48,847 nt of DNA, from contig DASTHW010000006.1 in NCBI GenBank assembly GCA_035717985.1, forward strand, positions 1-48,847. Direction: 5' to 3'. Numbering within the stretch: position 1 is the first letter of the stretch; each line of letters begins with the position of its first letter. The DNA comes from Candidatus Saccharimonadales bacterium (GTDB lineage: Bacteria; Patescibacteriota; Saccharimonadia; Saccharimonadales; UBA10212). The position numbers were made by a program, and so were the translations under genes. Below the pieces are notes generated by a model. The model saw only the letters and a list, made by a program, of their open reading frames with translations. It did no database searches and was not told the DNA's origin. This document shows positions 26,177-48,847 of this stretch, piece after piece.

Positions 26177-29100
26177 CTAATGAACCCTGATTGGATGGAC
26201 TCTTAGGCGTAGATACGAAACTTGGCCGCCGCTTACATTCGCATAACGCGTTTGAACTTTAACAATATCGTTAATTAAGGCGCCCGTACATCTCTTACTT
26301 GTCGTGCCCGTTATTTGAATAATGCCTGATGGGGTTGAGTATGCCTGAATACCGTCGGAATCTTGTGTAGCAGAAGACCCACACTCAATGGCCACAATGT
26401 CTTGGGAGTTTGAACCTCCAGGATTTTGGACTGTTGCGTTAAGCGTAATATCATAATCACCCGCCAGAGGTAAGGTAATAGATACATTGTTGGCCGGGTC
26501 AGCATAAGTAGTACTAGTAATGGTTGAGGCGGTATCATTTACAGATAGTAAGTCATCGCCGCCTAAATACTCCCAGTAGCCGCTAGTCGAGTTATAGCGC
26601 AAATGCCAGACAATGCCATTCGTGGCATCGGCTACAAAGTAATATTCTTGGCCGTTTACCGGGCTCGCCGGCAGGCTGGTGCCATACATACTTGTACTGC
26701 TAGTAATCAAGGAGCCCGAACTTATAGTCAAATTCCCAGCTACATTTAAAGCTCCGTTGATAGTTATAGTCATGCCGGAGGTATCCACCGTTAGCAGACT
26801 GGTACCGGCGGCGTTCTGCACCTGGAAGGCAGACGCAGAATCTACGGCATTGCGGAAGGAGGTATCACCGTTTTGCGTCAATTGCTGGCCGGAATATATA
26901 GTGTTTGTGCCTGTGTCGCTGATAGACGCAGAGTTGGTACCGTCACCGACGAAGTGATTAGAAGCTAGATAATTATTGGTACCAGCGGCCACATTAATCG
27001 CATAGCAAGTAGTAGTACAGGAGCTATCAGTAATATCGTTGTCAACAATCGAGTTTTGATTAACCCCAGCCCATATGTAAATTCCATTGTTAGCCGCTAC
27101 ACCACCACTATCGTAAATCTTATTAGACGAAATTATGTTCGAGCTGGCTGAAATATTAATCCCATAATTGGTACTGTTCGAGATAGTATTACCACTTATA
27201 GTATTGTTTGTAGAGCTGGCGCCAGAAACACGGACGCCATTATAATTCCCCTGGCTAGTGTTACCAGTTACTGTATTGCCCGCCGAATTATTCATATAAA
27301 TACCCTCTAAACTATTTCCCTGAACAGTGTTGGCTGACACATTATTATTGTTAGCCAGATAAATGAATACTCCCTCGGTGCCATTGCCCTGCACAGTATT
27401 ACCTGTAATTGTATTGTTAGAAGAAGTGTTATAGATGTAAATGCCCGGCCCGGCATCGGACTCGATAGTACTGCCACTGATAATGTTGTTTGAAGAACTA
27501 AATAGTTCAATGCCGTAACCGCTACTACCATATAGGTTTCTTACCTGCGTGTTGGCGATCTTGCCGCCAGACCGGGCACTACTACCCGAGCCGGAGCCCA
27601 CTTTATTAAAGTAAATTCCGGTCATACTGCCAGCTGTCTGATTCGCCTTATTCCCGTCTACTAGCAGGTTCTGGATAGTGACATTGGTACCCGTAGTCGT
27701 ATCTGAGTTAGTGATCATGCTATAGGTACCGTTCTGGGCATTGGGGATAGTGATGATAGTGCTGGTTCCAGCACCGGATAGGGTAGTGTTATCTGGAACA
27801 TTAATGGAACCACTTATGGTATAGGTACCCTCCATAAGGTAGACACTACAGCCGGTGGTAGTACAAGGAGTTGAGGTAAAGAAGGAGTTGATGGTAGTTT
27901 GGTCGGCACTGCCACTGGCTACTGCGTCGGCCGCATCCTTCTCGGCTTGGGTGGAATTAGAGGCGGCTACTATGAAGGTATTGCTCTTAGAGGGAGCTTG
28001 CCACTTAGAGCCGTTATATTGAACCAGCTGGTTAGTAGAAGTGTCATAGAATAGAGTGCCTTTGGTGGGAGTAGCTGGGCGGCTTACCGTAACACCGCCT
28101 GTAAAGGTAATGGTGGATGGGTTAGTGGCATTACCTATGGTTATATTGCCGTTACCAGTAGCGTCTATAGCTAGGAGGTTACTGCCGCCTGAATTTTGTA
28201 CCTGGAGTATTTTAGATGAGTTATTAAACGTCTTTAGAGTAAGTCCGCTATTCACTAACTGCATATTGGTGTTACCTGCCTGAATATTAATATATGTACT
28301 AGGGCTACTAGAGCCTCCAGTGGCACCGGTGCCACCTATGTACACAGTTTGTGCCGCGCCATTGTTATTGGCAATATTAACAGTGGTAGATAACCCCAGA
28401 CTGCCCAAGTGTCCAATATTGACTTCGGTGTCTGTGGTATCGACGGTGAAGAGACTGAATCCTCCTGAGTTCTGGACCTGGAAAGAAGTGGTGGAGTTGG
28501 TTGTGGTTTGTATAGCAGTATCCCCCGCCACCGATAAATTGCCACCAATGCCTACACCTTGAGCAAAGTTGGCCTGCCCCTGAACCTGAAAACCGCCTAC
28601 GGCAGTAATGTTACCGGCGGTAATTGAACCACCCGTACTACCCTGCCCAATTCCGCCGGCATCTGCTGTGGTACCGCCCTGTAGGCCTACAAGGTCAAGG
28701 TTAGCGCCAACCTGTACTCGCGAGGTTGATGCGTAATAAACCTTATTACCAGCCCCGCCTAATATGTATACGTAACCATTAGCTAGGGTAGCAGTATCTG
28801 AGGCGCTCGTAATAGGAGCATTATTTATATTTGTCTGCCAGGCGCCGGTGGAGCCGTCAGCATCAAGCTTGGCATAGTAGATAGTTTGCACAGTCCCACT
28901 GCCGAGAATATAGATATACCCGTTTGAGGTGACCACTGCCGTTCCCTGCATGCCAACCGGCAGGGGGTTAGTGCTAGTAGTCCAGCCGCTTAGGCTACCG
29001 TCAGAGTTAAATTTGGCATAATAAACTGTTGAATCGGGTGCAGAGCTACCTATTACATATATATATCCATTGGCCGTTGCCGTATATCCCCAGTACCGGG

Positions 29101-32100
29101 CGGTTGGCAAAGAGCTCGTGGTACCCCACGCCCCTAGAGTTCCGTCGCTATTAAGCTTGGCATAATATGAAGTTAAAAATGCGGAACCATTAAAGCCACC
29201 TATTACGTACACGTAGCCGTTGTTTGAAGTTGAGTATGCATACCCCCTGCTCCCCGGAAGTGAACTGGTAGTTCGCCATACCCCAGTGGAACCGTCAGCA
29301 TTGAGCTTAGAGTAGTAAACGGTAGCTACGTAACTAGACCCATTAATGCCGCCTATTACATACAAATACCCATTGGCGGTTATCGAAGAGGCGGCCGATA
29401 TCCCAGTAGGCAGAGTATTTGGGCTAGTTTGCCAGGCGCCGGTGGAGCCGTCAGCATTAAGCTTGGCATAATATATGTTAGCGCTACCTGGACTACATGA
29501 TGGAGTGCACCCTCCTATAGCATAGATGTACCCGTTTGCTACTACTGTGGTCTGACTAGTCAAGATCGAAGGAAGATTATTAGAGCTCATTATCCATTGG
29601 CCAAGTTGACCACTGGTATTGCCATCTAGGGTAATTATTGAATTGCTCGAATCAACTTTAATTAAGCTACCGCCGCTGGCATTTTGCACCTGGAAGGCAG
29701 TTGTATTATCCGTAGCCGGCTTGAAGAGTGTCTGGCTAGAGTAGGCTGTAAAATTACCAGTTGTATTAACGGTTGGCGAACTACCGGAGCCCACCAGTCC
29801 AGTGTCGTTAAAGTAGCCCCCGTAAGCTGTGCCGATTAAGCCCGTGGTACTAGGAGTACCGGCGCTTGCTGTTCTATATACTTTGTAGGCCACTGCTCCG
29901 CTAACAGCTGGCCAAGTTAATTGGTTATAGTTATTGGTATCTAGGGTAGCATTGCCGGTAGAGGTAGAACCTATAGCTGAAGCTGTCGCCTCGCCCCCGC
30001 TGGCGCTGATGGCCGTAACGCTATATGAGTAGTTAGTAGAACCTGCTGTGCCTTGCTGAGTAATAGTAGGCGCACCCGGACTGCTAAGAGAATTAATACT
30101 TACTCCGCCCAAGAGAGCCCCGGCTAATGATGTAGTACCTTGGACAAAAAGATTACCGCTGGTAGCCAGACTGCCTGATATTTGAGCACTTTGTCCTACT
30201 TGCAGTCCGCCAGAGATAGAGGCGCCACCGGCAAAGCTTGCATTGCTAACTACATTAAGAGTACCGATTTCCGCCCCGCCAGCTTCCAGCTGTTGGGAAT
30301 AGGTGCCGCCAAGATCAAAGACTTGGAGCTTGTTGGAAGCTTCATTATCAATATAAGCATAGCGGCCGTTTATCGTAGCTTTGATGGGTTGATTTAGAGT
30401 AGCCACCCCACCGCCTGATACATCGACCGGGGTTGAGGGGTTGGATATGTCAAAGACCTGGAGCTTGCCTGGCATCGTAAAGCCCACCACATAGGCATAC
30501 TGGCCTTGGACGCTAATGCCATTGGGGTTTGATACTGTAGCTACTCCGCCGGCAGTCACATCAACTGGTAAAGCAGGATTAGATATATCAAAAACTTGGA
30601 GCATACCCGGTGATGAGCTAATCAAATATGCGTAGCGACCAATAACATATACATCGGCAGGAGAGGTATCTGTGGCTACGCCACCGCCTGATACATCGAC
30701 CGGGACTGAGGGGTTGGATATGTCAAAGACCTGGAGCTTATTATCAAAGGTTGCTGGTAGGTAAAGATACCTGCCTGAAATAAACATTCTTTCGGGACCG
30801 CTAGCAGTATTAACTACAGATACAGCGGTAGGATGAGATGGGTTAGATACATCAAAGACTTGGAGTTGATTATTACCAAAAATATCCACATAGGCATAAT
30901 GGCCGGATACTATTACGCTTACCGGGTGACCCCGTAAAGAGACCCCCCCAGCGGTTATGTCTATAGGGGCTGAGGGGTTGGATATGTCAAAGACCTGGAG
31001 TGTACTATTAGTGCTATAAGTAACAACGTATGCGTAATGGCTCTGCACATAAACATCAAAGGGTCCACTATTTGTAGCTACCCCACCGCCTGATACATCG
31101 ACCGGGGTTGAGGGGTTGGATATGTCAAAGACCTGGAGCTTGTTAGAGAGTTGGCTCACTACATATGCATAATGTCCCTGAATAGCTATTTCCATAGGGT
31201 CGCCGCCAGTGGTCACACCCCCTCCCGAGACATTTTTGGGGAGGCTACCGCCTACAAAAAGCTGGCCAGTGGCTGTACCTAGACCTCCAATATTAACTCT
31301 TTGATCTGTAGTATCTACCGCTAAGACATTAGCGCCCCCGGCACTCTGAACCTGGAAGGCGGTTGTGGAATCAGAGTCGTTCTTAAATAAAGCGGCGCCG
31401 GAGTTGGCCACCGAGGCCACTACGTTGCCCGTATCCCCATTAACTAGCTGTAGTAAAGAAGCGCTTTGTCCGGAGGCGCCGCGGATTAAAGCCACTATGT
31501 CGTTGGGGTTGGCGCTTTGGATAGCGTAGTTGGCTGTCTGCAGAGTTGTGCCGTTTTGAATATAGTCACCAGAGCCGGAGGCCGTAGTACATCCGGTAGA
31601 ATTACACACTAGATTTCCGCCTACATATAGACCGGTTGTGCTGTTGATGTCCCCACCCACGTCTAATGTATAGCTGGCCGTAGGCTGGGCAATGGCTATA
31701 CGGGCATTTACGGTGTCAGCTTCAAACAGGTGGCTAGTGCCATTGGCATTTTGAATCTGGAAAGCAGTGGTTGAGTCCGTTGCACTCTGAAAAGTGTTAG
31801 AGCCGGTAAAGATTTGGTTGGCGTTAAGCTTGGCGATATTGCTGGAGTCAGATAGCTGGCTCGATGAATAAGTGCAGTTACCGCTGGCGTCGCAAACCTG
31901 GCTACCGTTCTGAAAGATAGTTGAACTATTTATGGAGGCAAAACTGTTACTGCCAGTAAAGTTATTGTTTTTATTCAAAAAGGCTACGGCGGCCGGTAGA
32001 CGGTTAACGTCCAGCACGCCGCTAGATAGGTTTCCGGCATTGGTATAAAATCCGCCACTCTGGCCGTTTAGCGCCACAGCGTTAACATTGATTAAAGAAG

Positions 32101-32893
32101 AGCCGTTACCGGCAAATTTGTTTTGCAGATTGTTGAATTGATTAGCGCCGCTAAAGGTTTGATTACCCGTAAGCGAGGCAGAGCCCGTACCAGCTTTGGC
32201 TATACAGCCGGAGGTATCACAGATCAGTACTGAGTTAATTTTAAGCCCGCTATTACTGAGCGAGGACGTACCACCGTCAGCTAATAGCTGGCCGGTAGAA
32301 GAGATATCTCCACCTACCTGGAGGACGGCACCATTTGCCTGTGGCGCGGTGCCCACTCCTATTTTTTGATTAGCCGTATCGGCTACCAGCAATTGCTTGC
32401 CGCTAGCGTTTTGAATCATAAAAGCGTTCTGCGAATCGGCTTCGTTTTGGATGGCCACCTGGCCAGTAGCGGTCAGGCTTTTACCGCCAGTGATAGTAGT
32501 GTCTCGGTTTAAGTTTATTTTGCTAATTGACGGCGAGGTGCTCATGATGTTTTGAGCTATCAAGTCCTGAGATTTGGCTACCTGGTTATTCTGGGCATTT
32601 TGGTGATTAGTAGTAACCATTAGCCAGCCGAAGGCTATAGCCAACAAGCCTATAAGCGCGCCGGCCGATATCCAAAAATTCCTGGTTTTAAAAATGATAG
32701 CCGGCGGCGCCTGCGGCGCCTGGATAACAATGGTTTTGGGTGACTGGCCGGAGCTTAAATTCTCCTCGGTGCTGGCAGAGATTTGGCTAGCTGGAGCTGT
32801 TTTTTGGCTAGCCTCATAAAACCCGTAAGCCGGCCTAGACTCCGCCGCCTGGCTGATAGGATTTTTAAAGTCGATTTTGCCTTTATCGTCCAT
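26177..32893 (-). CDS. Giant membrane-anchored multidomain surface protein (~2238 aa): shaft repeats, 7-blade LVIVD propeller, Fn3-like domain, 6-blade Kelch-like propeller, right-handed beta-helix
   Basis: ATG at 32893 with AAGGAGG SD at 7 nt; TM helix FWISAGALIGLLAIAFGWLMV; 7 'YAY...LQVFDISNP' repeats; 6 'NGYxYxxG' repeats; NosD-like 'NNTITGNTVQGN'; 7 'DSTTAFQVQN' shaft units. Confidence 0.92.
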   Translation of the reverse strand: MDDKGKIDFKNPISQAAESRPAYGFYEASQKTAPASQISASTEENLSSGQSPKTIVIQAPQAPPAIIFKTRNFWISAGALIGLLAIAFGWLMVTTNHQNAQNNQVAKSQDLIAQNIMSTSPSISKINLNRDTTITGGKSLTATGQVAIQNEADSQNAFMIQNASGKQLLVADTANQKIGVGTAPQANGAVLQVGGDISSTGQLLADGGTSSLSNSGLKINSVLICDTSGCIAKAGTGSASLTGNQTFSGANQFNNLQNKFAGNGSSLINVNAVALNGQSGGFYTNAGNLSSGVLDVNRLPAAVAFLNKNNNFTGSNSFASINSSTIFQNGSQVCDASGNCTYSSSQLSDSSNIAKLNANQIFTGSNTFQSATDSTTAFQIQNANGTSHLFEADTVNARIAIAQPTASYTLDVGGDINSTTGLYVGGNLVCNSTGCTTASGSGDYIQNGTTLQTANYAIQSANPNDIVALIRGASGQSASLLQLVNGDTGNVVASVANSGAALFKNDSDSTTAFQVQSAGGANVLAVDTTDQRVNIGGLGTATGQLFVGGSLPKNVSGGGVTTGGDPMEIAIQGHYAYVVSQLSNKLQVFDISNPSTPVDVSGGGVATNSGPFDVYVQSHYAYVVTYSTNSTLQVFDISNPSAPIDITAGGVSLRGHPVSVIVSGHYAYVDIFGNNQLQVFDVSNPSHPTAVSVVNTASGPERMFISGRYLYLPATFDNKLQVFDISNPSVPVDVSGGGVATDTSPADVYVIGRYAYLISSSPGMLQVFDISNPALPVDVTAGGVATVSNPNGISVQGQYAYVVGFTMPGKLQVFDISNPSTPVDVSGGGVATLNQPIKATINGRYAYIDNEASNKLQVFDLGGTYSQQLEAGGAEIGTLNVVSNASFAGGASISGGLQVGQSAQISGSLATSGNLFVQGTTSLAGALLGGVSINSLSSPGAPTITQQGTAGSTNYSYSVTAISASGGEATASAIGSTSTGNATLDTNNYNQLTWPAVSGAVAYKVYRTASAGTPSTTGLIGTAYGGYFNDTGLVGSGSSPTVNTTGNFTAYSSQTLFKPATDNTTAFQVQNASGGSLIKVDSSNSIITLDGNTSGQLGQWIMSSNNLPSILTSQTTVVANGYIYAIGGCTPSCSPGSANIYYAKLNADGSTGAWQTSPNTLPTGISAASSITANGYLYVIGGINGSSYVATVYYSKLNADGSTGVWRTTSSLPGSRGYAYSTSNNGYVYVIGGFNGSAFLTSYYAKLNSDGTLGAWGTTSSLPTARYWGYTATANGYIYVIGSSAPDSTVYYAKFNSDGSLSGWTTSTNPLPVGMQGTAVVTSNGYIYILGSGTVQTIYYAKLDADGSTGAWQTNINNAPITSASDTATLANGYVYILGGAGNKVYYASTSRVQVGANLDLVGLQGGTTADAGGIGQGSTGGSITAGNITAVGGFQVQGQANFAQGVGIGGNLSVAGDTAIQTTTNSTTSFQVQNSGGFSLFTVDTTDTEVNIGHLGSLGLSTTVNIANNNGAAQTVYIGGTGATGGSSSPSTYINIQAGNTNMQLVNSGLTLKTFNNSSKILQVQNSGGSNLLAIDATGNGNITIGNATNPSTITFTGGVTVSRPATPTKGTLFYDTSTNQLVQYNGSKWQAPSKSNTFIVAASNSTQAEKDAADAVASGSADQTTINSFFTSTPCTTTGCSVYLMEGTYTISGSINVPDNTTLSGAGTSTIITIPNAQNGTYSMITNSDTTTGTNVTIQNLLVDGNKANQTAGSMTGIYFNKVGSGSGSSARSGGKIANTQVRNLYGSSGYGIELFSSSNNIISGSTIESDAGPGIYIYNTSSNNTITGNTVQGNGTEGVFIYLANNNNVSANTVQGNSLEGIYMNNSAGNTVTGNTSQGNYNGVRVSGASSTNNTISGNTISNSTNYGINISASSNIISSNKIYDSGGVAANNGIYIWAGVNQNSIVDNDITDSSCTTTCYAINVAAGTNNYLASNHFVGDGTNSASISDTGTNTIYSGQQLTQNGDTSFRNAVDSASAFQVQNAAGTSLLTVDTSGMTITINGALNVAGNLTISSGSLITSSTSMYGTSLPASPVNGQEYYFVADATNGIVWHLRYNSTSGYWEYLGGDDLLSVNDTASTITSTTYADPANNVSITLPLAGDYDITLNATVQNPGGSNSQDIVAIECGSSATQDSDGIQAYSTPSGIIQITGTTSKRCTGALINDIVKVQTRYANVSGGQVSYLRLRVHPIRVH
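30405..31142. repeat. Identical 63-bp direct repeats in LVIVD blades (30405-30467 and 31080-31142)
   Basis: accccaccgcctgatacatcgaccggggttgaggggttggatatgtcaaagacctggagcttg at both sites; further partial copies near 30685 and 30975. Confidence 0.9.
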
Positions 32894-33101
32894 GGCGGGC
32901 CCTCCTTGATGAGAGGTGTTGTGTGCCATAGCTAACCGCACCGCTGGTCCAGTCAGAAGAGTCTAAATCAATACCGGCCAGGTAAGATTCCCTGGCCCGC
33001 TGAAACCGCTTTCGGCACCGCGGCGAACAAGTTTTGGCGTCTTTTCGTGCTGTAAAAACACGCTGACAGCCCAGGCAGATTTTAGCCTTACTACGGGACA
33101 T
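32883..33101 (-). CDS. Small zinc-finger-like protein (72 aa)
   Basis: ICLGCQRVFTARKDAKTCSPRCRKRFQR (CxxC...CxxxC, basic); A-rich region before the ATG; stop overlaps the giant gene start by 11 nt. Confidence 0.65.
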   Translation of the reverse strand: MSRSKAKICLGCQRVFTARKDAKTCSPRCRKRFQRARESYLAGIDLDSSDWTSGAVSYGTQHLSSRRARHGR

Positions 33102-33146
33102 TTTGTTTTGGTTTTTATCTTTGGTAAGACAAACTTAAGTATTATG

Positions 33147-33187
33147 AAAACTGTGACCGCTGTCAAGGGATAAAACTGTGACGGCTA
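33147..33187. repeat. Direct repeat AAAACTGTGAC x2 flanking a TTGACA -35
   Basis: aaaactgtgaccgctg (33147) and aaaactgtgacggcta (33172); minus-strand TTGACA at 33161-33166. Confidence 0.7.
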
Positions 33188-33283
33188 AAGAGATAAAGAG
33201 CAAAACATAGTGCTCAAAATTCATTTAACTAGCCATATATTGCTAGTTAAATACTGCCTTTAACAGATTAGCTTGATTACTAA

Positions 33284-33313: not shown

Positions 33314-33334
33314 TCTTCTGCCGTTAAGCTTAAC

Positions 33335-33532
33335 TTAGGCAGTTTTCTTGGTGCGCCGAGAGATACGGCCGCCAACGGCGCCAGCTTTGCGGGCTAGGTC
33401 GCGGTTAGCGTAAAAACCACCGGTGTGGCCCATCTTGCCGCCCATCTGGCCAATCTTGGCGTAAAAATCTTTACCGTACTTGCTCTTGTTGGTGGCGGCG
33501 GCTTTCTGGCCGCCATTTTTTGTTCCAGCCAT
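33335..33532 (-). CDS. KGG-repeat general stress / LEA-like small protein (65 aa)
   Basis: MAGTKNGGQKAAATNKSKYGKDFYAKIGQMGGKMG..GGF..NRDLARKAGAVGG; AAGGAG SD 7 nt before the ATG at 33532 (the ORF-track start at 33637 is too far upstream). Confidence 0.88.
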   Translation of the reverse strand: MAGTKNGGQKAAATNKSKYGKDFYAKIGQMGGKMGHTGGFYANRDLARKAGAVGGRISRRTKKTA

Positions 33533-33639
33533 GTTAATTCTCCTTATCAGCCACCAAAGATATTTCGGTAGGCTATTTAATGATATTTCCACCCCTTGCC
33601 TGCCTAACTTTGCAAAAGTTTTGGCGGGTGATGGCAAAC

Positions 33640-33660: not shown

Positions 33661-33685
33661 AGTTTTTGCTCACCAAACTACGCTT

Positions 33686-33745: not shown

Positions 33746-36700
33746 CTAAAGCGTTACATTGCCTTGGATTTTTACGTTTCCTTGGATGTGGGTCTCTGTA
33801 GGCGCAGTTACAAAAGACTGGATGGCAGAGGCGTAGCTCCACCTGTTACTTCCCCCTGGATCTATAGCATAGGCACGCCACCAATATGTGGCATTAGAGT
33901 TTAGATAAGGTGCTTGGTAGCTATGTGTAGCTAGCTGAGATGAATTTACATTAGGATTACCGCTGTAAGCCGTGCCACTTAGGGCGTTCTGACCGCCCCA
34001 GCCAGCCTGGGAGGCCGTACAAGTCCCGGGTACACCTGTGCCGCCGTTATACTGGCAGATACTACGAACTATCGTATTGCACGAACTATCAGCACAAACA
34101 TCTATCCAGTACTCTAGATAGTCAGAATCATATTCGGCTGAGCGTAGCTGGAAAGTTGTATAAACACTATTGCCGCTACTACTGCTGACGGGGTACAAAA
34201 GTGTAGGCGGTGCCGGCGGCGTATCGCCTGTAGTAAAGGTGCTGATGGTGGAGGCGGGGCTCCAGGTATCTGTGCCACCGGGGTCTATGGCGTAGGCCTC
34301 CCACCAATATTGTGTATTCTTGGTTAGAGGTGGCAGTTGGAAATTATAAGTGGCCATTGTGGATGAGGTAATTACACTACTACCGGCATAGGCCGTGCCG
34401 CCCTGCTGGTCTTGGCCGCTCCAGCCGGTTTGAGATGATGCTTGATCCACGGTACGTATAACAGAGTTGCAGGCGCTATCGCTACAAATATTTATCTTGT
34501 ACTGTAAATAGTCACTATCAGCATCAGTAGTTCTTAACTGCAAAGAGGGCATATCAGACACTCCGGTAGACCCGCTGGTTGGAGAGAATAAGATTGGCGC
34601 CGCCGGCGTGGTGTTATACGTAACTGTGAAGTCAGTTATTTGGCTTTGAGTACCGCAGGTAGCATCATCCATCTTGAACTGGACCCATAAGTATCTGCCG
34701 GCCTGATTAATGTTATAGGTGGTGGCAGGCAGGCCGTAGGGTATGGTATTAACAGAGCTAAAGTTACCAGAGGCATCGCCTACTCTATAGTTTATCTGCA
34801 TACCGCAGACAGCTTGGCCGCTGAAGGAGAGATTTGTAATCTTGTAAGCGCCACCAATATCGACAGTTTTTTCATATATGGCGGACTGATCTGGAGAATT
34901 AATAGAAATAAATTGAACGCCACTGCAAGGATCGGCCAGACCCGTACAGTCATTGGCAGAGGAGCCACCTTCACCGCCTACGATATAGAGGTAGCCATTA
35001 TAGGAAGCTAGAGCAAACCCATATCGAGGCTGGGTAAAGCCGGATACGAAAGTTGTGCCATCATTTGTGGAATTATGAGTATAGTTCCAGGTGCCAATGG
35101 TGCCGTTTGAATTAATTTGGGCGAACTGGACACCATTACAGTAAATTCCAGTAGATGTGCAGTCATCGCTTGAAGTATATGCGGCACCTCCCATGATATA
35201 TAGGTATCCATTATAGGAGATGGCGGCTAGCCCATATCGGGGCTGGGTGAAGCCGGCCACAAAAGTACTGCCATTATTGGCCGAGTTACTGGTATAGTTC
35301 CAGGTGCCGATAGTGCCGTTTGAATTAATTTGGGCGAACTGGACACCGTTGCAGAAGTCATTGCCACCCGTAGTGCAGTCATTAGCCGGAGCACCGCTCC
35401 TGCCGCCTATAATATAGAGATAGTTATTGTAGGTAGCGACGGCTAGGTCATACCGGTTAGATGCGAAGCCCGCCACAAAGCTTGTACCGTCGTTTGTAGA
35501 GTTATGAGTGAAATTCCAAGCGCCTATAGTGCCATCGGGATTAATCTTGGCAAATTGGACATCATCGCACCCACCACCGTTACAGTAGGTACTTGAGCCT
35601 CCCAAGCCACCTATAATATATAGGTAGCCGTTGTAGGCGGCGGTGGCAAGAGAATACCTAGGAAGAATAAAGCCAGCCACAAAGGTACTGCCATTATTGG
35701 CCGAGTTACTGGTATAGTTCCAGGTACCGATAGTGCCGTCTGAGTTTATTTTGGCAAATTGGACGCCGTTGCAGATGCCGCTAGGGATTGCCGTACAGTC
35801 ATTGCCGGAACCCTCATTAGACATATATCCTCCGATCACATATAGATAGCCACCGTAGGCGACAGAGGCAAAATCAGCCCTAGGTTCTGTAAAGCCGTCC
35901 ACAAAGGTCGTGCCGTCGTTAGTGGAGTTGTGGGTATAGCTCCAGGCTCCAACAGTGCCATCGGAGTTTATTTTGGCAAATTGGACGCCATTACATATAC
36001 GATAAACATTGTCAGAACTTGTAGTACAATCATCGCCCGATGTGTCATATATTTCACCACCCAGTACGTACAAGTAGCCATTGTACGCCACTGAAGCTTG
36101 ACCATAGCGGGGCCGGGTAAACCCACCCGAGAAAGTACTGCCGTCATTGGTAGAATTATGTGTATAGTTCCAGGTGCCGTCGGTACCGAAGGAGGGAGTA
36201 GTGCCGGCATATATAGAGGTATACTGAACCCCATTACAGGAATATGGAACACCACCGAGGTTATCAGTGGTGCAATCTTGGCCACTGATGGTGTAATCTC
36301 CACCTATGACATATATATAACCGTTATGTATGACTGCGTCAGCAAATTCACGTCGGGTTATCAGGCCCGCATTAAAACTACTGCCGTCATCCGTACCGTT
36401 ATGCGTATAATGCCAGGCCCCGACAGTACCATTGTTATTTAGCTTAGCGAATTCGACACCACTGCAGTATGTAACGCAGTCGTTACCCGTATTGCTCCTA
36501 CCGCCAACAATATATATGTAGCCATTGTATGCCACTGCCGTGAAAGAAAAACGAGGCTGAATAAAACCAGCGGAAAAAGTTGTGCCGTCACTGACTGAAC
36601 TGTGGGTATAATTCCAATCACTTACTGTACCGTCGGCGTTAATCTTCGCGAATTGGACGCCACTGCAAATGCTTGACGGACATTCGGAATTAACTGAAGC

Positions 36701-41074: not shown

Positions 41075-44000
41075 TTACTTCCTGTTGTATATGATGTTTA
41101 TCTCACCCGCCCTGGCATAATCACCGCTTGCCGCGACTTTCAGGCTCACATCTAACACAATCGTGTCTCCAGCGTTTACCGTACAGCTACCAAAGCCGGG
41201 GTTGGCGGTTCCCCAAGTCGCCGTCGTGCTGACCGTTCCGGCGGTACCGCAGGCAGTACTACCCTTGTAAATCGTAATCTTAGCCAGATCTGATGTAGTG
41301 CTGGTCCAGCCGTTGAATGTAATGCTGTTAAAGCTACTGAAGTCGGTCGGTGCCCGCCACTGGACAAAAATGTCATAGTCATTAGTGCCGGCGATGCTCT
41401 CGGTCCAAGAATAGTAACTATGCTGGTCGCTGGCACCACAGGGGTTGGGACTTGGGATAATATTTAGCAGACTGGAGCCCGAGCAAAAGTCGCTGGTCAT
41501 ACTGCCCGTATGGGTATTGCCGGTGTTGTTGTTTGGGGTCATGACGGCATTCACGTATTCGGGTGCCAGCGTTACCGTAGCCGTACTACTGCCGCCGCCG
41601 CAAGCACCCCATGTTAATACACCGGGCGTACCAGTATTCATTAGGCATTGGTTCGCACTGCCAGAGCTACCCGGTAGTGTTATAGCATATTGCGTGGTTC
41701 CGCCGGCCGCCTGAATAGATACATTGTTGGCACCGTTCCAAAATGCTAGCTTGCCGGAATTATCAACACTTAGAACTGTGCTACTGGCCGATTGGGCATT
41801 TATAAGATATCCGGTAGCCGCACTGTCGCTCTGATTCAGTAATAGAACGTTAGCTGTATTTGCTAGGCCTGTGGGCGAGAGGTCTTGGACTCTCATTACG
41901 CTACCCTGCAGTGTACTACCTGCCCCGGCACTTACCGTGCGCGAGAAATCGAAGTCATTGGTGGTATAGCTAATTGTACTGGCGGTAGTAAAGTTTTTAC
42001 TGCCCACAAGTTGGTCTGTTTGGCCGGACAAGGCTACTGTTACCGTACCTGTGCCACTACCCACTTGGGTAGTTCCGCTTGATGCCGCAAAGATAGCCGT
42101 CCCGCCGCTATAACTTATAGAGGCATAGTTAGTACCTGTACCGTCGTAAACCTTCAATGCAGGCTGAGCACCAGAGGTATCTAGCGCCAGCTCTTTGGCA
42201 TTGCTACCATTTTGAATCAAGAAAGCTGAAGCGGAGCTACCAGCTGTTTGCAAATAATACCCATTTAAGCCTAAATTGCCATTAACATCCACGCCACCGC
42301 CTACACTTAATCCTCCGGCGACGGAGGCGTCACCAGCAGTTTGCATATTTGAATCAACTGCAAGAGTTCCAAATTCAGCCCCACCGGCTTCTAATTGCTG
42401 TGTGTATGTACCGCCGAGGTCGAAGACATACAAACCATTAGCGTCTGCTGAGGCGTATGCATATCTGCCTTCGACAGAGACGTCAACAATACCGGGTGCA
42501 CTACCACTGGCAGTAACAAAAACTGGTGAGTAAGGATTACTTATGTCGACTACCGTTAGAGTGTCATTGCCGATACTAGCTATGTATGCATAGCGGCCCT
42601 GGATCGTAATTCCATCCGAACCAGAAAGTCCAGTAGTTAAAGTTGTAACCAAAGACGGGCTGGATGGCGTTGAGACATCTATTACGTATAGTGCTCCACT
42701 TTGGCTAGTAACATATGCATAGTGACCTTTAACATATACGCCGAAAGGATTTGATAAACCTGTTGATATAGAACCCGCCAGAGAGAGGCTGTTTGGGTTC
42801 GATATATCTATTATGGACAGTGTATGTGGTGATCCGCTGGTAACATAAGCATAATTACCTGCAACATAGATATTCCCGGGGAACGATGCCATGCTAAGCG
42901 ATCCAAGAGCCACTGGGCTTGATGGGTTAGAGATGTTATAGACTTCTATGGCCGGACTACCCGCAACGGTGATATAGGCATACTGCCCGCGTATATAGAT
43001 GTCCTGTGGCGCCGAACCGATAGACACTGAGCCTAAATATGATGGAGAAGTTGGAACGCTTATATTGTAAATGGCTAAGGTGCCGCTACCATTATTAACT
43101 ATGTAAGCATACTGGCCTTGGACATATACTTGATAAGGACTATTAATCCCAGTAGTGGATGTGGCGACTACTATAGGCGCAATAGGATTTGATATATCTG
43201 TAACGTAGAATTTATTACCAGTATTGTCTATGGAATATAAGTAACGACCTACAACAAATGAGCTCACTACATACGACCCTTTAAGCATGGAACCGACGAG
43301 CTTTGGCTGTGTTCCACTGACATACACCTGCCCAGTAGGAGTACCTAGACCGCCAACTGAAAGTTGGAGAGAAGAATTGGATTTATTGCTACTAGTATAG
43401 GCACTGCTTGAAGTTGGGGGTGTGGCTGTGCCAGCAGTAATCGAACCATTATCAGTGAATGAGGAACTAAGAACTGTGGTCAAATAGACCTCGCTACCAG
43501 CTACGCCGTTAGCGGCTGAACGATAGATTCTATAACCACTAGCTCCCGTTACAGCCGTCCAGGAAATACCAATGGTCTGATTACCAGACGTAAGGGTGGT
43601 GGTGTTCTCATCAAAAGTAGAAGTTTCGCCACCAGCAGAATCTATAGCCGTTACTTCATAGTAGTACTTAGCTAGTGCCGTCAGTGAGCCACCGGCTGAT
43701 TGAGTTAAAGTTAGAGTTCCCGGGGAACTCATCTGGTTATATATCACGTCAACACTTATGCGCATGTTGCTTGTATCACCCGTGAGTAGCGTCGCGCCGG
43801 AGGAGTTCTGTAACGTAAAGCCACTGGTAGAATTAGTTTTTGTTATAAATTGAGACTGCCCTAAGACCTTCAGCTGGGGAGGGCTAGACAAGCTACCAAC
43901 TAAATTTATGCCCGTATCATTGAATGTGGTGCCACTAGTATTACCGACCCAGCCCGTAGAACTCGGATTGCCACCAGTGGCATAGGTGCGGTAGATATTA

Positions 44001-47000
44001 TAGCTCACGGCACCGCCAACCGAACTCCACGAGATAAGGTTGTTATTCCCAGCGGTTAGGGTGGTATTGCCCAAGCTAGTAGTCCCCGCTGGTGACATAG
44101 GCCCTTCATCTCCGTAACTGTCAACCGCGGTAATTGCGTAGTCCCAGCGCTGGGAGCCGCCGGTTCCTTGGGGGGTTACAGTGGGAGCCGCGGGAATGGA
44201 AGGCTGGCTTGTGTCGCCGCCAATCACCACTTTACCTGCTAGACTAGCAGAGCCGGAAATACCTAGATCGCCAGCCGTTTGTATATTCTGGCCCACCTGT
44301 AGAGCACCCTGCACATTAAAGTCACCAGCAATCTGAGCATTTGTATCAACTTGTAACGACCCAACCTCCGCACCGCCAGCCTCTAGCTGTTGGGTATAGG
44401 TACCGCCAAGATCGTACACGTTAAGCTTACTGCCACTCCCTACTACATAGGCATATCTACCAGAAATGTATAATCCTTGTGGCGATGAAAGATTAGTGTC
44501 TGGGTTTTGAGTTAATAAATTCGGAGCGGCTGGATTAGAGATATCATAAACCACCAGTTTGTTATTGCCGCTACTGGCAACGTAGGCATAGCGACCTTGG
44601 ACATAGACAGAACTTGGGCTACTTAAAGTTGTATCAGAATTGTTTACGCAACTCATGCTATATGGATTAGAAATATTGCAGACTGCTAATTTACTATTCC
44701 CGGCGTTGGTTATATAAGCATAGTTACCCTGAACGTATATACTGTTCGGAGCTGATATAATACCCCCGCTATAATTACTCAGCCAGGTTGGATTGTGAGG
44801 ATTACTGATATCGTAAGTGGCGATTACATTGTTATTGGTGCCGGTAACAAACGCATATCGTCCTTGGACGTAAACAGAGCTAGGGCCACTTATTTCATCG
44901 TAGCCGGCGCTAGCGGCGATATAAGTAGGGGAGGCTGGGTTGGAGATGTCATAGATCTCTAATTTGTTGTTCCCATAACTGGTTATGTAGGCGTAGTGGC
45001 CGGATACTTTAACGCTAGTTGGTTCATTTAAGTTAGAGTCAGAATTTTCGCCTATGAAAGTTGGTGTAGTCGGCTTCGTAATATCATAAACATCCAGCTT
45101 ATTGTTAGAATAGTTGGCTACGTAAGCGTACCTACCCTGCACATATACACTCTTAGGGTTATTTAGTTTTGTGTCTGAGTTCTGACCGATATATGTCGGC
45201 GCCATTCCCCCTACATACACCTGCCCTACAGCAGTTCCTAATGAGCCTACCGAGACCCTCATATTTGTAGTGTCAGCCGTTATTAAAGAGCTCCCCGTAG
45301 AATTCTGAACTTGGAAGGCTGAGGCGGAGTCAGCAAGTGGCTTGAATAAGGCCGAGCCATCAGACCCTACAGAGAAGGTGCCAAGATTAATGGCCTTGGC
45401 ATATATCTGGCCATAGGGATTCGTAACTGTGCCGATGGAGGAGCCACTTATCATATATCCTGGGCTACTATCAGCTGTAGTACGAAAGGCGAATTTCAAG
45501 TCAAGGTTAGTGGCGTCATAGTAGCTGATTCTGGCAAAGCCGTCTGAGCCAATAGCCATAGAAGCCTCTTGGCCAACATTCCCTACAGTGTCGACGGTAG
45601 TGATATTATGCGTTGAACATGTGGCGTTGGTGCACTGGGCGAACCTAAGATCGGCATCAGGAAGTCCGTCCCAATAAGCAATTCTTGCAAAACCATCAGA
45701 GCCCATCCCGATGGAGGAAAACAGACCGTCACTTCCCGATGCATCTACGGTGATAATGTTGCTAGTGGTACAAGTGGCGTTGGTGCACTGGGCGAACTTA
45801 AGGGCGGCGTTGGTGTTATCGTAGTAACTAATTCTAGCAAAACCATCAGAGCCGAGAGCAATGGAGGTGTTATCACCGACATTTCCAGTTGTATCAACGC
45901 TGGTGATATTGCTGATAGTACAGGCGGCGTTGGTGCACTGGGCGAACTTAAGATCGCCATTAGTGTTGTCGTAATAGCTGATTCTGGCAAAGCCATCAGA
46001 GCCGAGAACCATTGAAACCCCTTGTCCAACATCGCCAGTAGAGTCAACTGTTCTGATGTTGCTAGTAGTACAGGCGTCGTTGGTGCACTGGGCGAACTTA
46101 AGAACGCCGCTTGAACCGTTATTGTCATAATAGGCAATCCTGGCAAAGCCATCTGGACCCACGGCAATTGATGTAGGTCCAGGTATGATAAGGCCGGTAT
46201 CAACGGTAGTTATGTTAAATGTTGTGCAGGCGGCGTTGATGCACCGGGCGAATTTAAGGTAGCCATTAGTGACATCGTAGTAGCTTATTCTGGCGAAACC
46301 GTCTGAGCCAATTGCTATGGACGTATACCGTCCGACGTTCCCAGATGTATCTACGGTGGTAATGTTGCTGGTGGTACAGGCGGCGTTGGTGCACTGGGCG
46401 AACTTAAGATCGCCATTAGTGTTGTCGTAATAGCTGATTCTGGCAAAGCCATCAGAGCCGAGAGCAATGGATGAATAGTTCCCAACGTCTCCAGTTGTAT
46501 CTACAGAAGTCAGTGAGTTATGTCCTGCACTGCCCGGGTTTTGGGCGGCTAGGGTAGCAGTTATTATTTGAGTATTCTGAGTATCCGCCGTCAGTATCGC
46601 TGAACCTGATGAATTTTGTACCTGAAAAGCAGTAGCGGAATTGGTGGTGGTCTTGATTGAGGTTTCGCCCTTGTCGCTGACATTGAATAGCGCAGTGCCT
46701 AACGTGGTGTTGTTGACAGCTTTATCCCGTACAGCAAACAGCGAAGCGCCAGTTATAGAAGCACTCGACTTGTTCTGGATGTCTACTCCGGTCGTGTTAG
46801 TAACCGCACCAATGACTATCTCCGGAGTAGTGCCGGCCGCAGAAGCATCATAGGCCTGCTGTAAGGTAGTAGAATTACCACCGCACGAAGCATCAGTCTT
46901 ATTACATAGAACCTTAACCACCCCATTCTCTACTATAGAAACTTTTCCAGTAGTGGAGTTATAGAACAAACCGCCGTTTAGGGAGGCTAAGTTAGTGGTC

Positions 47001-48847
47001 GGGTCAGCAGTGGCAGAGTCAAGGACTAGGACAGTAGTATTAGTATCTGTGCCTGTGCTATTCCCTACTTTCAAGATATTACCGGCTACCCCAGCCGCGC
47101 GGGTCAGAGTGTTGGCGGCCAATAGACTTGCGCCAGAAGAATCCTGCACCTGAAAGGCGGTGGTGCTATTGGCGGCGTTACGGAAGCTGGCATCACCGTT
47201 TTCAGTCAATGGTTGATTAGAGTAGGTGTTCCCACCAGTTGTAGCATCATTAATGCTAGCGGCATAGGTGCCGTCACCCAGTAAGTGGTTAGATGCTAGG
47301 TAGTTACCCGTACTACCAGCGTCAGAGATATTAATGGCGTAGCAAGTGGTGGTACAGGAAGTGTCAGTGATGTCATTGCTGGTGATGGAGTTTTTAGTAG
47401 AGGAGGAGCTTAGGTAAATGCCATTATTGTTGGTGCTACCGCCATTATCGTGAACTTTATTGGACGAGACAGTATTATTGGAGGAATTATTGAAACTTAT
47501 ACCAATGCTACCGTTGCCCTGGGCGGTATTGCCGGTAATGGTGTTGTTAGAGGAGGAGGAAGAGAGATCAATGCCTCCAAGATTGCCCTGGGCGGTATTG
47601 CCGGTAATGGTGTTGTTAGAGGAGGAAGAAGAAAGTTCAATGCCCTCGCTACCATTGCCCTGGGCGGTATTGCCGGTAATGGTGTTGTTAGAGGAGGAAG
47701 AGAAAAGCTCAATACCGTATAGGCCGTTGCCCTGGGCGGTATTGCCGGTAATGGTGTTGTTAGAGGAGGAAGAGAAAAGGTAGACTCCAGAACCAACGTT
47801 GCCCTCGGCAATGTTACCCGTGACAGTATTATTCGAGGAGGAGAAAGCCATATAAATGCCCGAGCCACCGTTGCCCTGGGCGGTATTGCCGGTAATGGTG
47901 TTGTTAGAGGAGGAAGAAAGGTAAACGCCTCCAGCATTGCTGTATAAATTTTTGACTACTATATTAGTAATTTTGCCGCCGTCTCTGGCGCTACTACCAG
48001 AACCACTGCCCATATGATTGAAATAGACGCCGTAAAAAAAGCCAGCCGACTGGTTTGATTTATTCCCATCAATCAATAGGTTCTGGATGTTGATATGGGT
48101 ACCAGTAGTAGTATCTGAGTTAGTAATAGCGTAGTAAGTTCCGGAGCCAACATTGTCGGCAAACTTAATGATGGTTCCCTCTCCAACACCTTGTAGAGTG
48201 ACATTATTAGGGATAGTTATAGCGTTCGTAGAGATTATGTAGGTTCCCTCTTCCAGGTAGACCATCCCTCCGCCGGCTGAACCAACTGCCTTTAGGGCGG
48301 CATTGATGGTATTGGGAGTGGAGCCGTCAGTAGCACCAGCCGCATCAGTACAGGAAGTTACTACATAATCGGCTCCATCTGGATTTTGGCTGGCTACTGG
48401 GGATGTACCGGTACAGCCGGTAGCCGTGCCCATAGCGACTATCTTAGTGGAGGTAGTTCTATCCCCTATCCACTTACTACCGTTATATTGAACTAGTTGG
48501 TTAGTAGAGGTGTCATAGTAAAGAGTTCCTTTGGTTGGGGAAGCTGGGCGGGAGGCGGTGGTGCCGCCGGCCATGGTGATGGTTTGGTTAGCGGCTACGG
48601 AGATACCGCCATTGGCAGTTATTAATCCAGAGGAAGTAAGAGTAGATACGGTTACGCCACTAGAAGCTACTTGCAGGTACTTAGTAGAGCCGCCATTACT
48701 CTGGATAGTGAATAGATTGCCCACCAGTGGAGTAGCATTATCCTGGACTACCAGTCCCCCTGCTCCAGGAGAAGAATCTAGAGTTATTTGGGGGGAGGTG
48801 GTGCTATAGTCATAGGCTTGTTGCAGAGTGGTGCTACCACCTACTCC
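41075..48847 (-). CDS. Giant multidomain surface protein (>2591 aa, start beyond the right edge): beta-helix, 7-blade 'GFARI' propeller, two LVIVD propellers, Fn3-like domains, shaft repeats
   Basis: Frame is open from 48847 (GVGGSTTLQQAYDYSTTSPQITLDSSPGAGGLVVQDNATPLVGNLF...), so the ORF-track start at 48724 is internal; 7 x 'SDGFARISYYD...KFAQCTNAAC'; 6 + 7 LVIVD blades; 'SSNNTITGNTAQGN' coils. Confidence 0.93.
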   Translation of the reverse strand, partial: GVGGSTTLQQAYDYSTTSPQITLDSSPGAGGLVVQDNATPLVGNLFTIQSNGGSTKYLQVASSGVTVSTLTSSGLITANGGISVAANQTITMAGGTTASRPASPTKGTLYYDTSTNQLVQYNGSKWIGDRTTSTKIVAMGTATGCTGTSPVASQNPDGADYVVTSCTDAAGATDGSTPNTINAALKAVGSAGGGMVYLEEGTYIISTNAITIPNNVTLQGVGEGTIIKFADNVGSGTYYAITNSDTTTGTHINIQNLLIDGNKSNQSAGFFYGVYFNHMGSGSGSSARDGGKITNIVVKNLYSNAGGVYLSSSSNNTITGNTAQGNGGSGIYMAFSSSNNTVTGNIAEGNVGSGVYLFSSSSNNTITGNTAQGNGLYGIELFSSSSNNTITGNTAQGNGSEGIELSSSSSNNTITGNTAQGNLGGIDLSSSSSNNTITGNTAQGNGSIGISFNNSSNNTVSSNKVHDNGGSTNNNGIYLSSSSTKNSITSNDITDTSCTTTCYAINISDAGSTGNYLASNHLLGDGTYAASINDATTGGNTYSNQPLTENGDASFRNAANSTTAFQVQDSSGASLLAANTLTRAAGVAGNILKVGNSTGTDTNTTVLVLDSATADPTTNLASLNGGLFYNSTTGKVSIVENGVVKVLCNKTDASCGGNSTTLQQAYDASAAGTTPEIVIGAVTNTTGVDIQNKSSASITGASLFAVRDKAVNNTTLGTALFNVSDKGETSIKTTTNSATAFQVQNSSGSAILTADTQNTQIITATLAAQNPGSAGHNSLTSVDTTGDVGNYSSIALGSDGFARISYYDNTNGDLKFAQCTNAACTTSNITTVDTSGNVGRYTSIAIGSDGFARISYYDVTNGYLKFARCINAACTTFNITTVDTGLIIPGPTSIAVGPDGFARIAYYDNNGSSGVLKFAQCTNDACTTSNIRTVDSTGDVGQGVSMVLGSDGFARISYYDNTNGDLKFAQCTNAACTISNITSVDTTGNVGDNTSIALGSDGFARISYYDNTNAALKFAQCTNATCTTSNIITVDASGSDGLFSSIGMGSDGFARIAYWDGLPDADLRFAQCTNATCSTHNITTVDTVGNVGQEASMAIGSDGFARISYYDATNLDLKFAFRTTADSSPGYMISGSSIGTVTNPYGQIYAKAINLGTFSVGSDGSALFKPLADSASAFQVQNSTGSSLITADTTNMRVSVGSLGTAVGQVYVGGMAPTYIGQNSDTKLNNPKSVYVQGRYAYVANYSNNKLDVYDITKPTTPTFIGENSDSNLNEPTSVKVSGHYAYITSYGNNKLEIYDISNPASPTYIAASAGYDEISGPSSVYVQGRYAFVTGTNNNVIATYDISNPHNPTWLSNYSGGIISAPNSIYVQGNYAYITNAGNSKLAVCNISNPYSMSCVNNSDTTLSSPSSVYVQGRYAYVASSGNNKLVVYDISNPAAPNLLTQNPDTNLSSPQGLYISGRYAYVVGSGSKLNVYDLGGTYTQQLEAGGAEVGSLQVDTNAQIAGDFNVQGALQVGQNIQTAGDLGISGSASLAGKVVIGGDTSQPSIPAAPTVTPQGTGGSQRWDYAITAVDSYGDEGPMSPAGTTSLGNTTLTAGNNNLISWSSVGGAVSYNIYRTYATGGNPSSTGWVGNTSGTTFNDTGINLVGSLSSPPQLKVLGQSQFITKTNSTSGFTLQNSSGATLLTGDTSNMRISVDVIYNQMSSPGTLTLTQSAGGSLTALAKYYYEVTAIDSAGGETSTFDENTTTLTSGNQTIGISWTAVTGASGYRIYRSAANGVAGSEVYLTTVLSSSFTDNGSITAGTATPPTSSSAYTSSNKSNSSLQLSVGGLGTPTGQVYVSGTQPKLVGSMLKGSYVVSSFVVGRYLYSIDNTGNKFYVTDISNPIAPIVVATSTTGINSPYQVYVQGQYAYIVNNGSGTLAIYNISVPTSPSYLGSVSIGSAPQDIYIRGQYAYITVAGSPAIEVYNISNPSSPVALGSLSMASFPGNIYVAGNYAYVTSGSPHTLSIIDISNPNSLSLAGSISTGLSNPFGVYVKGHYAYVTSQSGALYVIDVSTPSSPSLVTTLTTGLSGSDGITIQGRYAYIASIGNDTLTVVDISNPYSPVFVTASGSAPGIVDVSVEGRYAYASADANGLYVFDLGGTYTQQLEAGGAEFGTLAVDSNMQTAGDASVAGGLSVGGGVDVNGNLGLNGYYLQTAGSSASAFLIQNGSNAKELALDTSGAQPALKVYDGTGTNYASISYSGGTAIFAASSGTTQVGSGTGTVTVALSGQTDQLVGSKNFTTASTISYTTNDFDFSRTVSAGAGSTLQGSVMRVQDLSPTGLANTANVLLLNQSDSAATGYLINAQSASSTVLSVDNSGKLAFWNGANNVSIQAAGGTTQYAITLPGSSGSANQCLMNTGTPGVLTWGACGGGSSTATVTLAPEYVNAVMTPNNNTGNTHTGSMTSDFCSGSSLLNIIPSPNPCGASDQHSYYSWTESIAGTNDYDIFVQWRAPTDFSSFNSITFNGWTSTTSDLAKITIYKGSTACGTAGTVSTTATWGTANPGFGSCTVNAGDTIVLDVSLKVAASGDYARAGEINIIYNRK
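45918..46463. repeat. Identical 90-bp direct repeats (45918-46007 and 46374-46463) in the GFARI propeller
   Basis: gtacaggcggcgttggtgcactggg...catcagagccgaga at both sites. Confidence 0.9.
47445..47920. repeat. 69-72-bp coding tandem repeat (beta-helix coils) with an identical 44-bp core
   Basis: Core ttgccctgggcggtattgccggtaatggtgttgttagaggagga at 47514, 47583, 47655, 47727, 47871; diverged copy at 47799. Confidence 0.92.

Follow-up and report, generated by a model that had tools for sequence, protein, structure and literature searches.

A 44-residue unit recurs at module boundaries in a family of giant, probable fiber proteins of Saccharibacteria

The stretch of DNA analyzed here, hereafter the window, is the entire 48,847-nucleotide contig DASTHW010000006.1, designated C6 in an 835,603-bp genome assembled in 16 contigs from a host-dependent soil Saccharimonadales bacterium (Saccharibacteria/TM7 within Patescibacteria). 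Five of its open reading frames (ORFs), named A to E and all located on the minus strand, are relevant to this work. Three of them, A, B and E, code for long proteins in which a 44-residue unit with the core TAFQVQN..G..L..VDT (the FQVQN unit) recurs between globular modules. The five genes are as follows (architecture symbols are defined below).

1..2226, minus strand: gene A, N-terminal 742 aa, C-terminus truncated by the contig end; architecture base-u-u-q-u
26177..32941, minus strand: gene B, complete fiber protein of 2254 aa; alternative start ATG at 32893
33746..39772, minus strand: gene C, 2008 aa, predicted membrane-anchored protein with about 18 Kelch blades, without the unit
39769..41067, minus strand: gene D, 432 aa, one N-terminal transmembrane (TM) segment, without the unit
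41075..48847, minus strand: gene E, C-terminal 2590 aa, N-terminus truncated by the contig end

A 44-position profile hidden Markov model (HMM) detected exactly 15 copies of the unit, three in A, seven in B and five in E, with per-copy E-values of 3e-7 to 1e-21, which are the counts that an original prediction made from the sequence alone had reported. No copy was found with this model in C or D, and a six-frame scan of the window confined the motif to the frames of A, B and E. Furthermore, an HMM built from the seven copies of B only recovered all three copies of A and four of the five of E (E-values of 1e-6 to 1e-16), and composition-matched shuffles of A, B and E (n = 300) yielded no unit match below 1e-3. 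All positions listed here were assigned with the HMM.

1270..1401, minus strand: unit A1, residues 276-319
892..1026, minus strand: unit A2, residues 401-445, followed by VGIGLSPSNSGATLQV
124..258, minus strand: unit A3, residues 657-701
32345..32473, minus strand: unit B1, residues 157-199
31676..31807, minus strand: unit B2, residues 379-422
31274..31405, minus strand: unit B3, residues 513-556
29612..29743, minus strand: unit B4, residues 1067-1110
28400..28531, minus strand: unit B5, residues 1471-1514
28121..28252, minus strand: unit B6, residues 1564-1607, the most divergent copy of B
26747..26878, minus strand: unit B7, residues 2022-2065
47075..47206, minus strand: unit E1, residues 548-591
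46541..46675, minus strand: unit E2, residues 725-769
45233..45364, minus strand: unit E3, residues 1162-1205
43733..43867, minus strand: unit E4, residues 1661-1705
42140..42268, minus strand: unit E5, residues 2194-2236, the most divergent copy, missed by the B-only model

The unit, called "shaft unit" in the original prediction, mostly occurs once per junction and is better described as a module-boundary connector than as the shaft itself. Taken together, its copies amount to only about 12% of the residues in A, B and E. The unit also doubles as the conserved core of longer stalk modules, as in B, where the units beginning at residues 379 and 513 are 134 residues apart. None of the models of Pfam, NCBIfam and PHROGs covers the unit, the stalk module, the base domain, the GFARI propeller or the tips described below. 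In sequence searches of the PDB, neither the unit profile nor the stalk-module profile matched any chain, and searches with A, B and E in full yielded only Kelch matches and weak AlgG matches. No publication describing the unit or its cassette grammar was found in the literature searched, and the original prediction had known of none either.

Module architectures were parsed using a small library of home-made HMMs and are written here with u for the unit, p for a conserved connector that follows LVIVD propellers, y for a motif that is about 40 residues long, and q for the QQAYD module, which comprises about 75 residues. With these symbols, B reads TM-u-u-u-LVIVD7-p-Fn3-u-Kelch6-u-u-y-betahelix-u-tipB and E reads q-y-betahelix-u-q-u-GFARI7-u-LVIVD6-p-Fn3-u-Fn3-LVIVD7-p-(u)-tipE. 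This annotation reproduced both the two cassette orders and the blade counts predicted earlier (LVIVD, seven in B, six and seven in E; Kelch, six in B; GFARI, seven in E). The range of about 22 kb said to be devoted to the system (22.7 kb) also includes C and D, which lack the unit. The modules of B and E are listed below.

30287..31219, minus strand: LVIVD propeller of B, seven blades (Pfam and blade count)
30047..30286, minus strand: connector p of B, GGTYSQQLEAGGAE followed by Gly-rich repeats
29744..30046, minus strand: Fn3-like domain of B (profile)
28712..29611, minus strand: Kelch propeller of B, six blades (Pfam, PDB match, confident AlphaFold2 model)
27992..28120, minus strand: y motif of B (RPATPTKGTLFYDTSTNQLVQYNGSKW), matching phrog_20787, directly before the β-helix
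26879..27991, minus strand: right-handed parallel β-helix of B (Beta_helix/NosD)
26180..26746, minus strand: tipB, C-terminal, about 189 aa, no family match
48452..48577, minus strand: y motif of E, directly before the β-helix
47207..48451, minus strand: parallel β-helix of E (Pfam, NCBIfam)
45443..46540, minus strand: GFARI propeller of E, seven blades, residues 770-1135
44387..45232, minus strand: LVIVD propeller of E, six blades (Pfam and blade count)
43868..44152, minus strand: Fn3-like domain 1 of E (profile)
43358..43732, minus strand: Fn3-like domain 2 of E (profile)
42395..43357, minus strand: LVIVD propeller of E, seven blades (Pfam and blade count)
41078..42139, minus strand: tipE, C-terminal, 354 aa, no family match, the commonest terminal module of the family

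Most of these cassettes were assigned to known families above the Pfam gathering thresholds. LVIVD (PF08309) scored 114 bits in B and 189 bits in E for a cut-off of 20.2, and the LVIVD segments also match phrog_22523. Kelch_1 (PF01344; related PF13964) reached 26.8 bits in B for a cut-off of 20.1, with a match to KLHL12 in the PDB (1.8e-16), and the β-helices (PF13229/PF05048) scored 60 bits in B and 100 bits in E for a cut-off of 25.9, together with TIGR03804 repeats. A profile of the three Fn3-like segments matches the PDB entry 3mpc, an "Fn3-like protein," with an E-value of 1.9e-5, and the y motif, RPxxPTKGTL[FY]YDTSTNQLVQYNGSKW, matches phrog_20787, annotated as a virion structural protein. 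The blades of the GFARI propeller follow the pattern G[SP]DGFARI[AS]Y[YW]D...L[KR]FA.C....C, with a Cys pair conserved in most blades; this propeller gave no credible match in Pfam and no sequence match in the PDB. The same cassette was found again in relatives, for example in P0046, P0093, P0096, P0110, P0270 and P0274, and tipB forms the C-terminus of P0005, P0006, P0007, P0014 and P0088.

A search of 1.84 billion cluster representatives with the unit profile returned 2,824 proteins at an E-value of 1e-3 or less, 277 of them at 1e-30 or less. Nearly all of these matches are giants, the richest of which holds 25 units. Among genomes belonging to the same family or order, 29 of 41 carry the unit, with one open frame of 7,644 aa, compared with only 21 of 301 genomes drawn evenly over the whole phylum. 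In addition, a degenerate DNA pattern for [DN]xTTAFQ[VI]QN was run against one genome per species for 185,579 species, a search in which about 2 chance matches were estimated; it gave at least 120 loci, and the taxon-named records among them belong to Saccharibacteria, Saccharimonadales/Saccharimonadia or the "Patescibacteria group," with the exception of a 4.5-kb contig labeled Nanoarchaeia. The distribution seen in these three scans indicates that the unit is a lineage-specific building block, and A, B and E probably belong to a large modular fiber family almost confined to Saccharibacteria.

The order of the modules varies from one member to the next. Among 100 unit-bearing homologues of B we counted 95 distinct architectures, and 145 among 199 proteins in a larger set. 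The fixed order across relatives that would have spoken against the original prediction was clearly not observed. P0005, the closest overall relative of B, carries the Kelch and β-helix cassettes in reverse order, and for the individual cassettes of B and E the top match (40-66% identity) lies each time in a different protein and at a different position. The junctions obey a clear grammar. In the 100 homologues, a unit precedes the Kelch propeller in 83 of 87 cases at a median gap of 13 residues, and follows it in 78 of 87 at a median gap of 62 residues, which corresponds to a conserved connector. In the same set, y precedes the β-helix in 44 of 48 cases and a unit follows it in 32 of 48; p follows LVIVD in 42 of 53 cases, while the module in front of LVIVD is Fn3 in 24 and a unit in 22. 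In the 199 proteins, 127 of the 162 propellers of the Kelch or GFARI type are bracketed by units, compared with 78 ± 6 and a maximum of 104 when tokens were shuffled within each protein (n = 1000). Furthermore, minimal members of about 975 aa (P0244, P0251, P0252 and P0255) read signal-base-u-u-q-tipE, and the giants therefore look like a short fiber expanded by insertion of cassettes. These observations give good support to the view that the family is combinatorial and modular.

At the N-terminus, A, B, C and D each contain exactly one hydrophobic segment, a feature shared by 145 of 176 complete homologues. The proteins of the system consist of about 45% Ser, Thr, Gly and Asn, with very few charged residues. 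From these segments and this composition, export and surface location of A, B, C and D are plausible, and the surface exposure assumed in the original prediction is plausible to the same degree. Two kinds of N-terminus were found.

1702..2094, minus strand: base domain of A, residues 45-175, right behind the signal peptide
32606..32677, minus strand: TM segment of B, residues 89-112, single and N-terminal

Residues 20-44 of A are predicted to form a signal peptide or anchor, and the signal-peptide-like segment ends in AQA. The base domain of about 130 residues that follows is far better conserved than any other part of the family: it occurs in 272 proteins of 408-1298 aa, with 52-84% identity among the 120 listed, and the domains downstream of it vary (CBM_4_9, Kelch, LVIVD, β-helix, S74, DUF4082, FG-GAP). 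Of the 235 sampled members of the family, 83 have it N-terminally, and B does not carry it. In B, residues 1-88 (32678-32941, minus strand) would form a cytoplasmic tail ahead of the TM segment; the 235-protein sample contained no homologue of it.

Gene C appears to be a conserved partner gene, lying downstream of the fiber gene E and separated from it by D. Homologues of its N-terminal module were found in six relatives, and in four of these (G003, G009, G016 and G021) the gene immediately follows, on the same strand, an ORF that bears the unit. Between E and C, the stop codon of D overlaps the start of C by 4 nt. The product of D is rich in Ser, Thr and Ala, and its sole match in Pfam, NCBIfam and PHROGs is phrog_36177, whose function is not assigned. 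A homologue of D was detected in one of 40 relatives, G004 (positions 5961-7001 of its contig C5), where it also lies directly after a fiber ORF.

Taken together, we favor with some confidence a model in which A, B and E belong to a modular, membrane-anchored fiber family with a trimeric shaft and host-binding cassettes. Such proteins would be attached through their N-terminus in one of two ways, either by an uncleaved membrane anchor, as in B, or by a signal peptide and the base of about 130 residues, as in A. From this anchor, a β-rich shaft of stalk modules and Gly-rich connectors would run outward and end in a tip domain, interrupted along its length by globular cassettes, namely LVIVD, Kelch and GFARI propellers, tailspike-like parallel β-helices and Fn3-like domains. 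The FQVQN unit, presumably a β-hairpin meander, would serve as the standard connector at module boundaries, placed directly before a propeller, about 60 residues after it, after the β-helix and before the tip. We propose that a joint shared by all modules allows them to be duplicated, deleted or rearranged without breakage of the shaft, giving rise to near-unique architectures. The shaft would be a homotrimer, like phage tail fibers and the mosaic adhesive trimer (MAT) fibers of Bdellovibrio, and three copies of each cassette would then surround its axis. The cassettes may bind glycans of the actinobacterial host envelope, and the β-helix cassettes could perhaps cleave them, while the product of fiber gene E would work together with the membrane-anchored 18-blade Kelch protein C encoded downstream. 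The outcome would be a multivalent attachment able to diversify. A bolder version, which we put forward tentatively, would make the FQVQN unit a universal socket in a trimeric shaft, one that lets any globular cassette with units on its flanks be added, copied or relocated along the fiber, with cassette insertions forming three-fold rosettes of propellers or β-helices at a set height and the set of cassettes, together with the 18-blade Kelch partner, determining which host envelopes are held.

The unit with its positions, the grammar, the varying architectures, the taxonomic restriction and the N-terminal hydrophobic segments were observed directly. Trimerization, surface display and host binding are the parts of this model that we infer, and oligomerization into fibers and recognition of a host are both reasonable. 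A trimeric shaft is favored on indirect grounds, because unit-bearing relatives carry S74 and collagen elements, which in phage fibers act only as trimers (PMC10769870). P0016, P0095, P0167 and P0201, each with 6-10 units, end in a Peptidase_S74 intramolecular chaperone domain, whose SDxxxK motif is visible in P0016 and P0095, and 13-16 collagen GXY triplets lie near the base of P0037 and P0139. The stalk module of B (residues 372-562), modeled as a single chain with AlphaFold2, formed an extended all-β chain with a mean predicted local distance difference test score (pLDDT) of 70. A Foldseek search of predicted viral structures (BFVD) with this model gave borderline matches (E-values of 1e-3 to 1e-1), and those that are named are mostly tail-fiber, minor-tail, short-tail-fiber and S74-containing proteins.

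Several observations weigh against this model. The template modeling (TM) scores of the BFVD matches are only 0.2-0.3, the same search against the PDB returned nothing significant (all E-values of 1 or more), and the window proteins show no sequence similarity to solved MAT fragments or phage fibers. Pfam detected neither an S74 domain nor a collagen run in the proteins of the window, and among the relatives sampled only about 2% carry either element. In the stalk-module model, the strands of the unit and the hairpin pair preceding it reached a pLDDT of 80-85, and the unit may thus fold without partner chains. At the DNA level, no similarity between units was detected by blastn at an E-value of 1e-10 or less and paralogous cassettes are 65-85% identical, indicating that shuffling is not visibly recent in this genome. 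The confident single-chain strands, the missing S74 and collagen elements of the window proteins and the lack of a significant match to a solved trimeric fiber are also what would be expected of monomeric "beads on a string" adhesins, in which the unit would be a small autonomous β linker between independent domains, a role likened to that of linkers in giant repeat adhesins of other bacteria. We consider this explanation a serious rival but less likely, given that 44 residues in three or four strands are too small for a stand-alone domain, that some relatives with the unit bear obligate trimer formers and that the BFVD neighbors are mostly proteins of the tail-fiber class. Moreover, confidence in the unit collapses beside a well-predicted propeller: in a single-chain AlphaFold2 model of u-Kelch6-connector-u (B residues 1060-1520), the propeller reached a pLDDT of 74-94 and both units and the connector fell below 50, suggesting that the unit is not packed onto the propeller and not fixed in the isolated chain. 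Overall, the balance tips slightly toward a trimeric shaft.

The same proteins could also be read as a general envelope coat or as a nutrient-harvesting array that binds or degrades polysaccharides for feeding, with no role toward a host. The Beta_helix/NosD domains of the window proteins and the Pectate_lyase_3-type, CBM_4_9, GH85_C-like and H-lectin domains of relatives are typical of carbohydrate-active proteins, and a fibrous coat has been ascribed to giant proteins in another candidate phyla radiation (CPR) bacterium (PMC8080830). However, fast architectural diversification over a conserved base fits a recognition device and not a structural coat, and neither catalytic residues nor above-threshold enzyme families were found, the AlgG and galacturonidase matches being far below their cut-offs; a coat or feeding array is therefore rather improbable. 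Least probable by far are prophage or phage-derived tail-fiber genes lying in the chromosome. The y motif and LVIVD matches in PHROGs point in that direction, as does the occurrence of the unit in tail-fiber-size ORFs of two predicted viral contigs of IMG/VR: L134:3518-6403 (plus strand) encodes 962 aa with a single unit (E-value of 3.6e-16) and a weak match to phrog_31660, "tail fiber protein," and L133:5792-8041 (minus strand) encodes 750 aa with a single unit (E-value of 3e-14). These contigs may be Saccharibacteria phages that share the connector, or misclassified cellular contigs. Conversely, the rest of the window holds housekeeping genes, namely ileS, the class II ribonucleotide reductase gene (nrd), ftsZ, ftsA, priA, infB, rpsA and a ROK kinase gene, which places the fiber genes in the chromosome and not in a prophage. 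The window holds no further phage genes, the proteins bear predicted membrane anchors and the family is found, often in multiple copies, in 29 of 41 related genomes. A phage origin was also rejected by tblastn, as neither the stalk module nor the base domain had a match among 50,697 phage records.

Read as anchored, modular host-binding fibers, the proteins find their closest known design in the MAT fiber family of Bdellovibrio bacteriovorus described by Caulton et al. in 2024 (PMC10769870), although membership in that family is not established. MAT fibers are homotrimeric and intertwined, with a conserved β-rich N-terminal domain of about 130 aa right after their signal peptide, either a C-terminal S74 chaperone or another tip that folds on its own, and a capping-loop motif, V-G-G/N-pi-x-x-P-x-x-x-L, on the edges of β-helices (PMC10769870). 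Both systems are multi-copy families of long surface fibers, each in a bacterium dependent on attachment to other bacteria, and some members of each end in an S74 chaperone, here the four unit-bearing relatives. Both also combine a conserved N-terminal domain of about 130 residues behind a signal peptide (in A) with diversified distal ends, a likeness of layout. The strict capping-loop motif was found in none of A, B and E and in none of 235 relatives, and a relaxed version, VGIG..P...L.V, follows 3 of the 15 units of the window and 231 of 1447 units of the relatives (16%). In contrast to MAT fibers, which measure about 600-1000 aa and have a single terminal tip, the Saccharibacteria proteins measure 2,000-7,600 aa and contain several internal globular cassettes; B is anchored by a TM segment, and the FQVQN unit is found only in Saccharibacteria/Patescibacteria, plus the one Nanoarchaeia-labeled contig.

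Phage S74 fibers and tailspikes, such as T5 pb1 and the K1F endosialidase, resemble the proteins described here in their β-rich shafts and parallel β-helix modules, in the S74 terminus of four relatives, in the virion-protein motif before the β-helix and in the borderline fold neighbors of the tail-fiber class. Unlike them, the present proteins are encoded in the chromosome, predicted to be membrane-anchored and several times longer, with propellers inserted along the shaft; those of the window lack S74, and no sequence match was found in the 50,697 phage genomes. A YadA-type trimeric autotransporter is not indicated either, as Pfam detected no C-terminal β-barrel anchor domain and anchoring is predicted to be N-terminal; the name "trimeric autotransporter adhesin" that one homologue bears in its source is a label only. 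Within the CPR, giant membrane surface proteins have been reported in Vampirococcus lugosii (PMC8080830), and putative adhesins with VCBS, dockerin and Fn3 domains are essential for the epibiotic growth of the cultured Saccharibacterium Southlakia epibionticum (PMC10633639). These are likewise large, N-terminally anchored proteins rich in adhesion domains, belong to episymbiotic Patescibacteria and are proposed to mediate host contact, but the reports give domain contents only, with no common connector, cassette grammar or conserved base. The general idea is already known, since giant CPR surface proteins, essential Saccharibacteria adhesins and mosaic predator fibers have all been described (PMC8080830, PMC10633639, PMC10769870).

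The repeat pattern reported in the original prediction was confirmed, and its interpretation as a host-recognition kit was partly supported: judging from their sequences, the proteins are probably a kit for gripping host cells. A family that occupies about 5% of a genome of about 0.8 Mb, diversifies fast and combines a conserved base with a variable distal end has the layout expected of a recognition device. To our knowledge, how ultra-small episymbionts recognize and hold their hosts is largely unknown beyond type IV pili. One 44-position profile is sufficient to find the family and parse its modules, and with it the cassette sets of different strains can be compared with one another and with host range. 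We consider the system to be of moderate to good interest because it provides a concrete, searchable handle on a large uncharacterized family that is credible as a host-attachment device. Should the shaft prove trimeric and accept cassettes inserted at the unit, it would offer a useful natural scaffold for protein engineering, and if the unit is indeed a universal socket, the fibers would be a cellular, multi-storey counterpart of phage receptor-binding fibers and a natural plug-and-play standard for protein fibers.

Over the whole genome, module-bearing ORFs of the family sum to about 40 kb, or 4.8% of the 835,603 bp, when the fragments on contigs C1, C2, C4, C8 and C16 are counted. Fiber-gene fragments lie at contig edges (positions 1 and 48847 of the window, C2:2-898, C4:1-1944 and C16:129120-132680) or make up whole contigs (C1 and C8). 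The assembly evidently breaks within fiber genes, since contigs are filled or ended by family fragments, and the genome probably holds at least four of them. Contig C1 (6 kb) is a single open frame of 2008 aa that reads q-y-BH-BH-u-q-y-BH-u-q-Lv7-p-u (BH, β-helix; Lv7, seven-blade LVIVD propeller). At the DNA level, positions 317-493 of A are 95% identical to C8:1543-1719, and C1 contains two sites with about 81% identity to the 5' end of E. We also considered that A and E could be a single gene running across the junction of a circular contig, and rejected it because the contig bears core housekeeping genes.

Two small ORFs flank gene B. On the plus strand, positions 25623-26150 encode 175 aa with a weak Peptidase_M78/IrrE-like match, in an ORF that overlaps the end of the ROK kinase gene and faces the 3' end of B. 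On the minus strand, between B and C, positions 33335-33637 encode 100 aa with Gly/Lys-rich repeats (GGQKAAATNKSKYGKDFYAKIGQMGGKMGHTGGF...), a product that presumably resembles the small general-stress proteins with KGG repeats.

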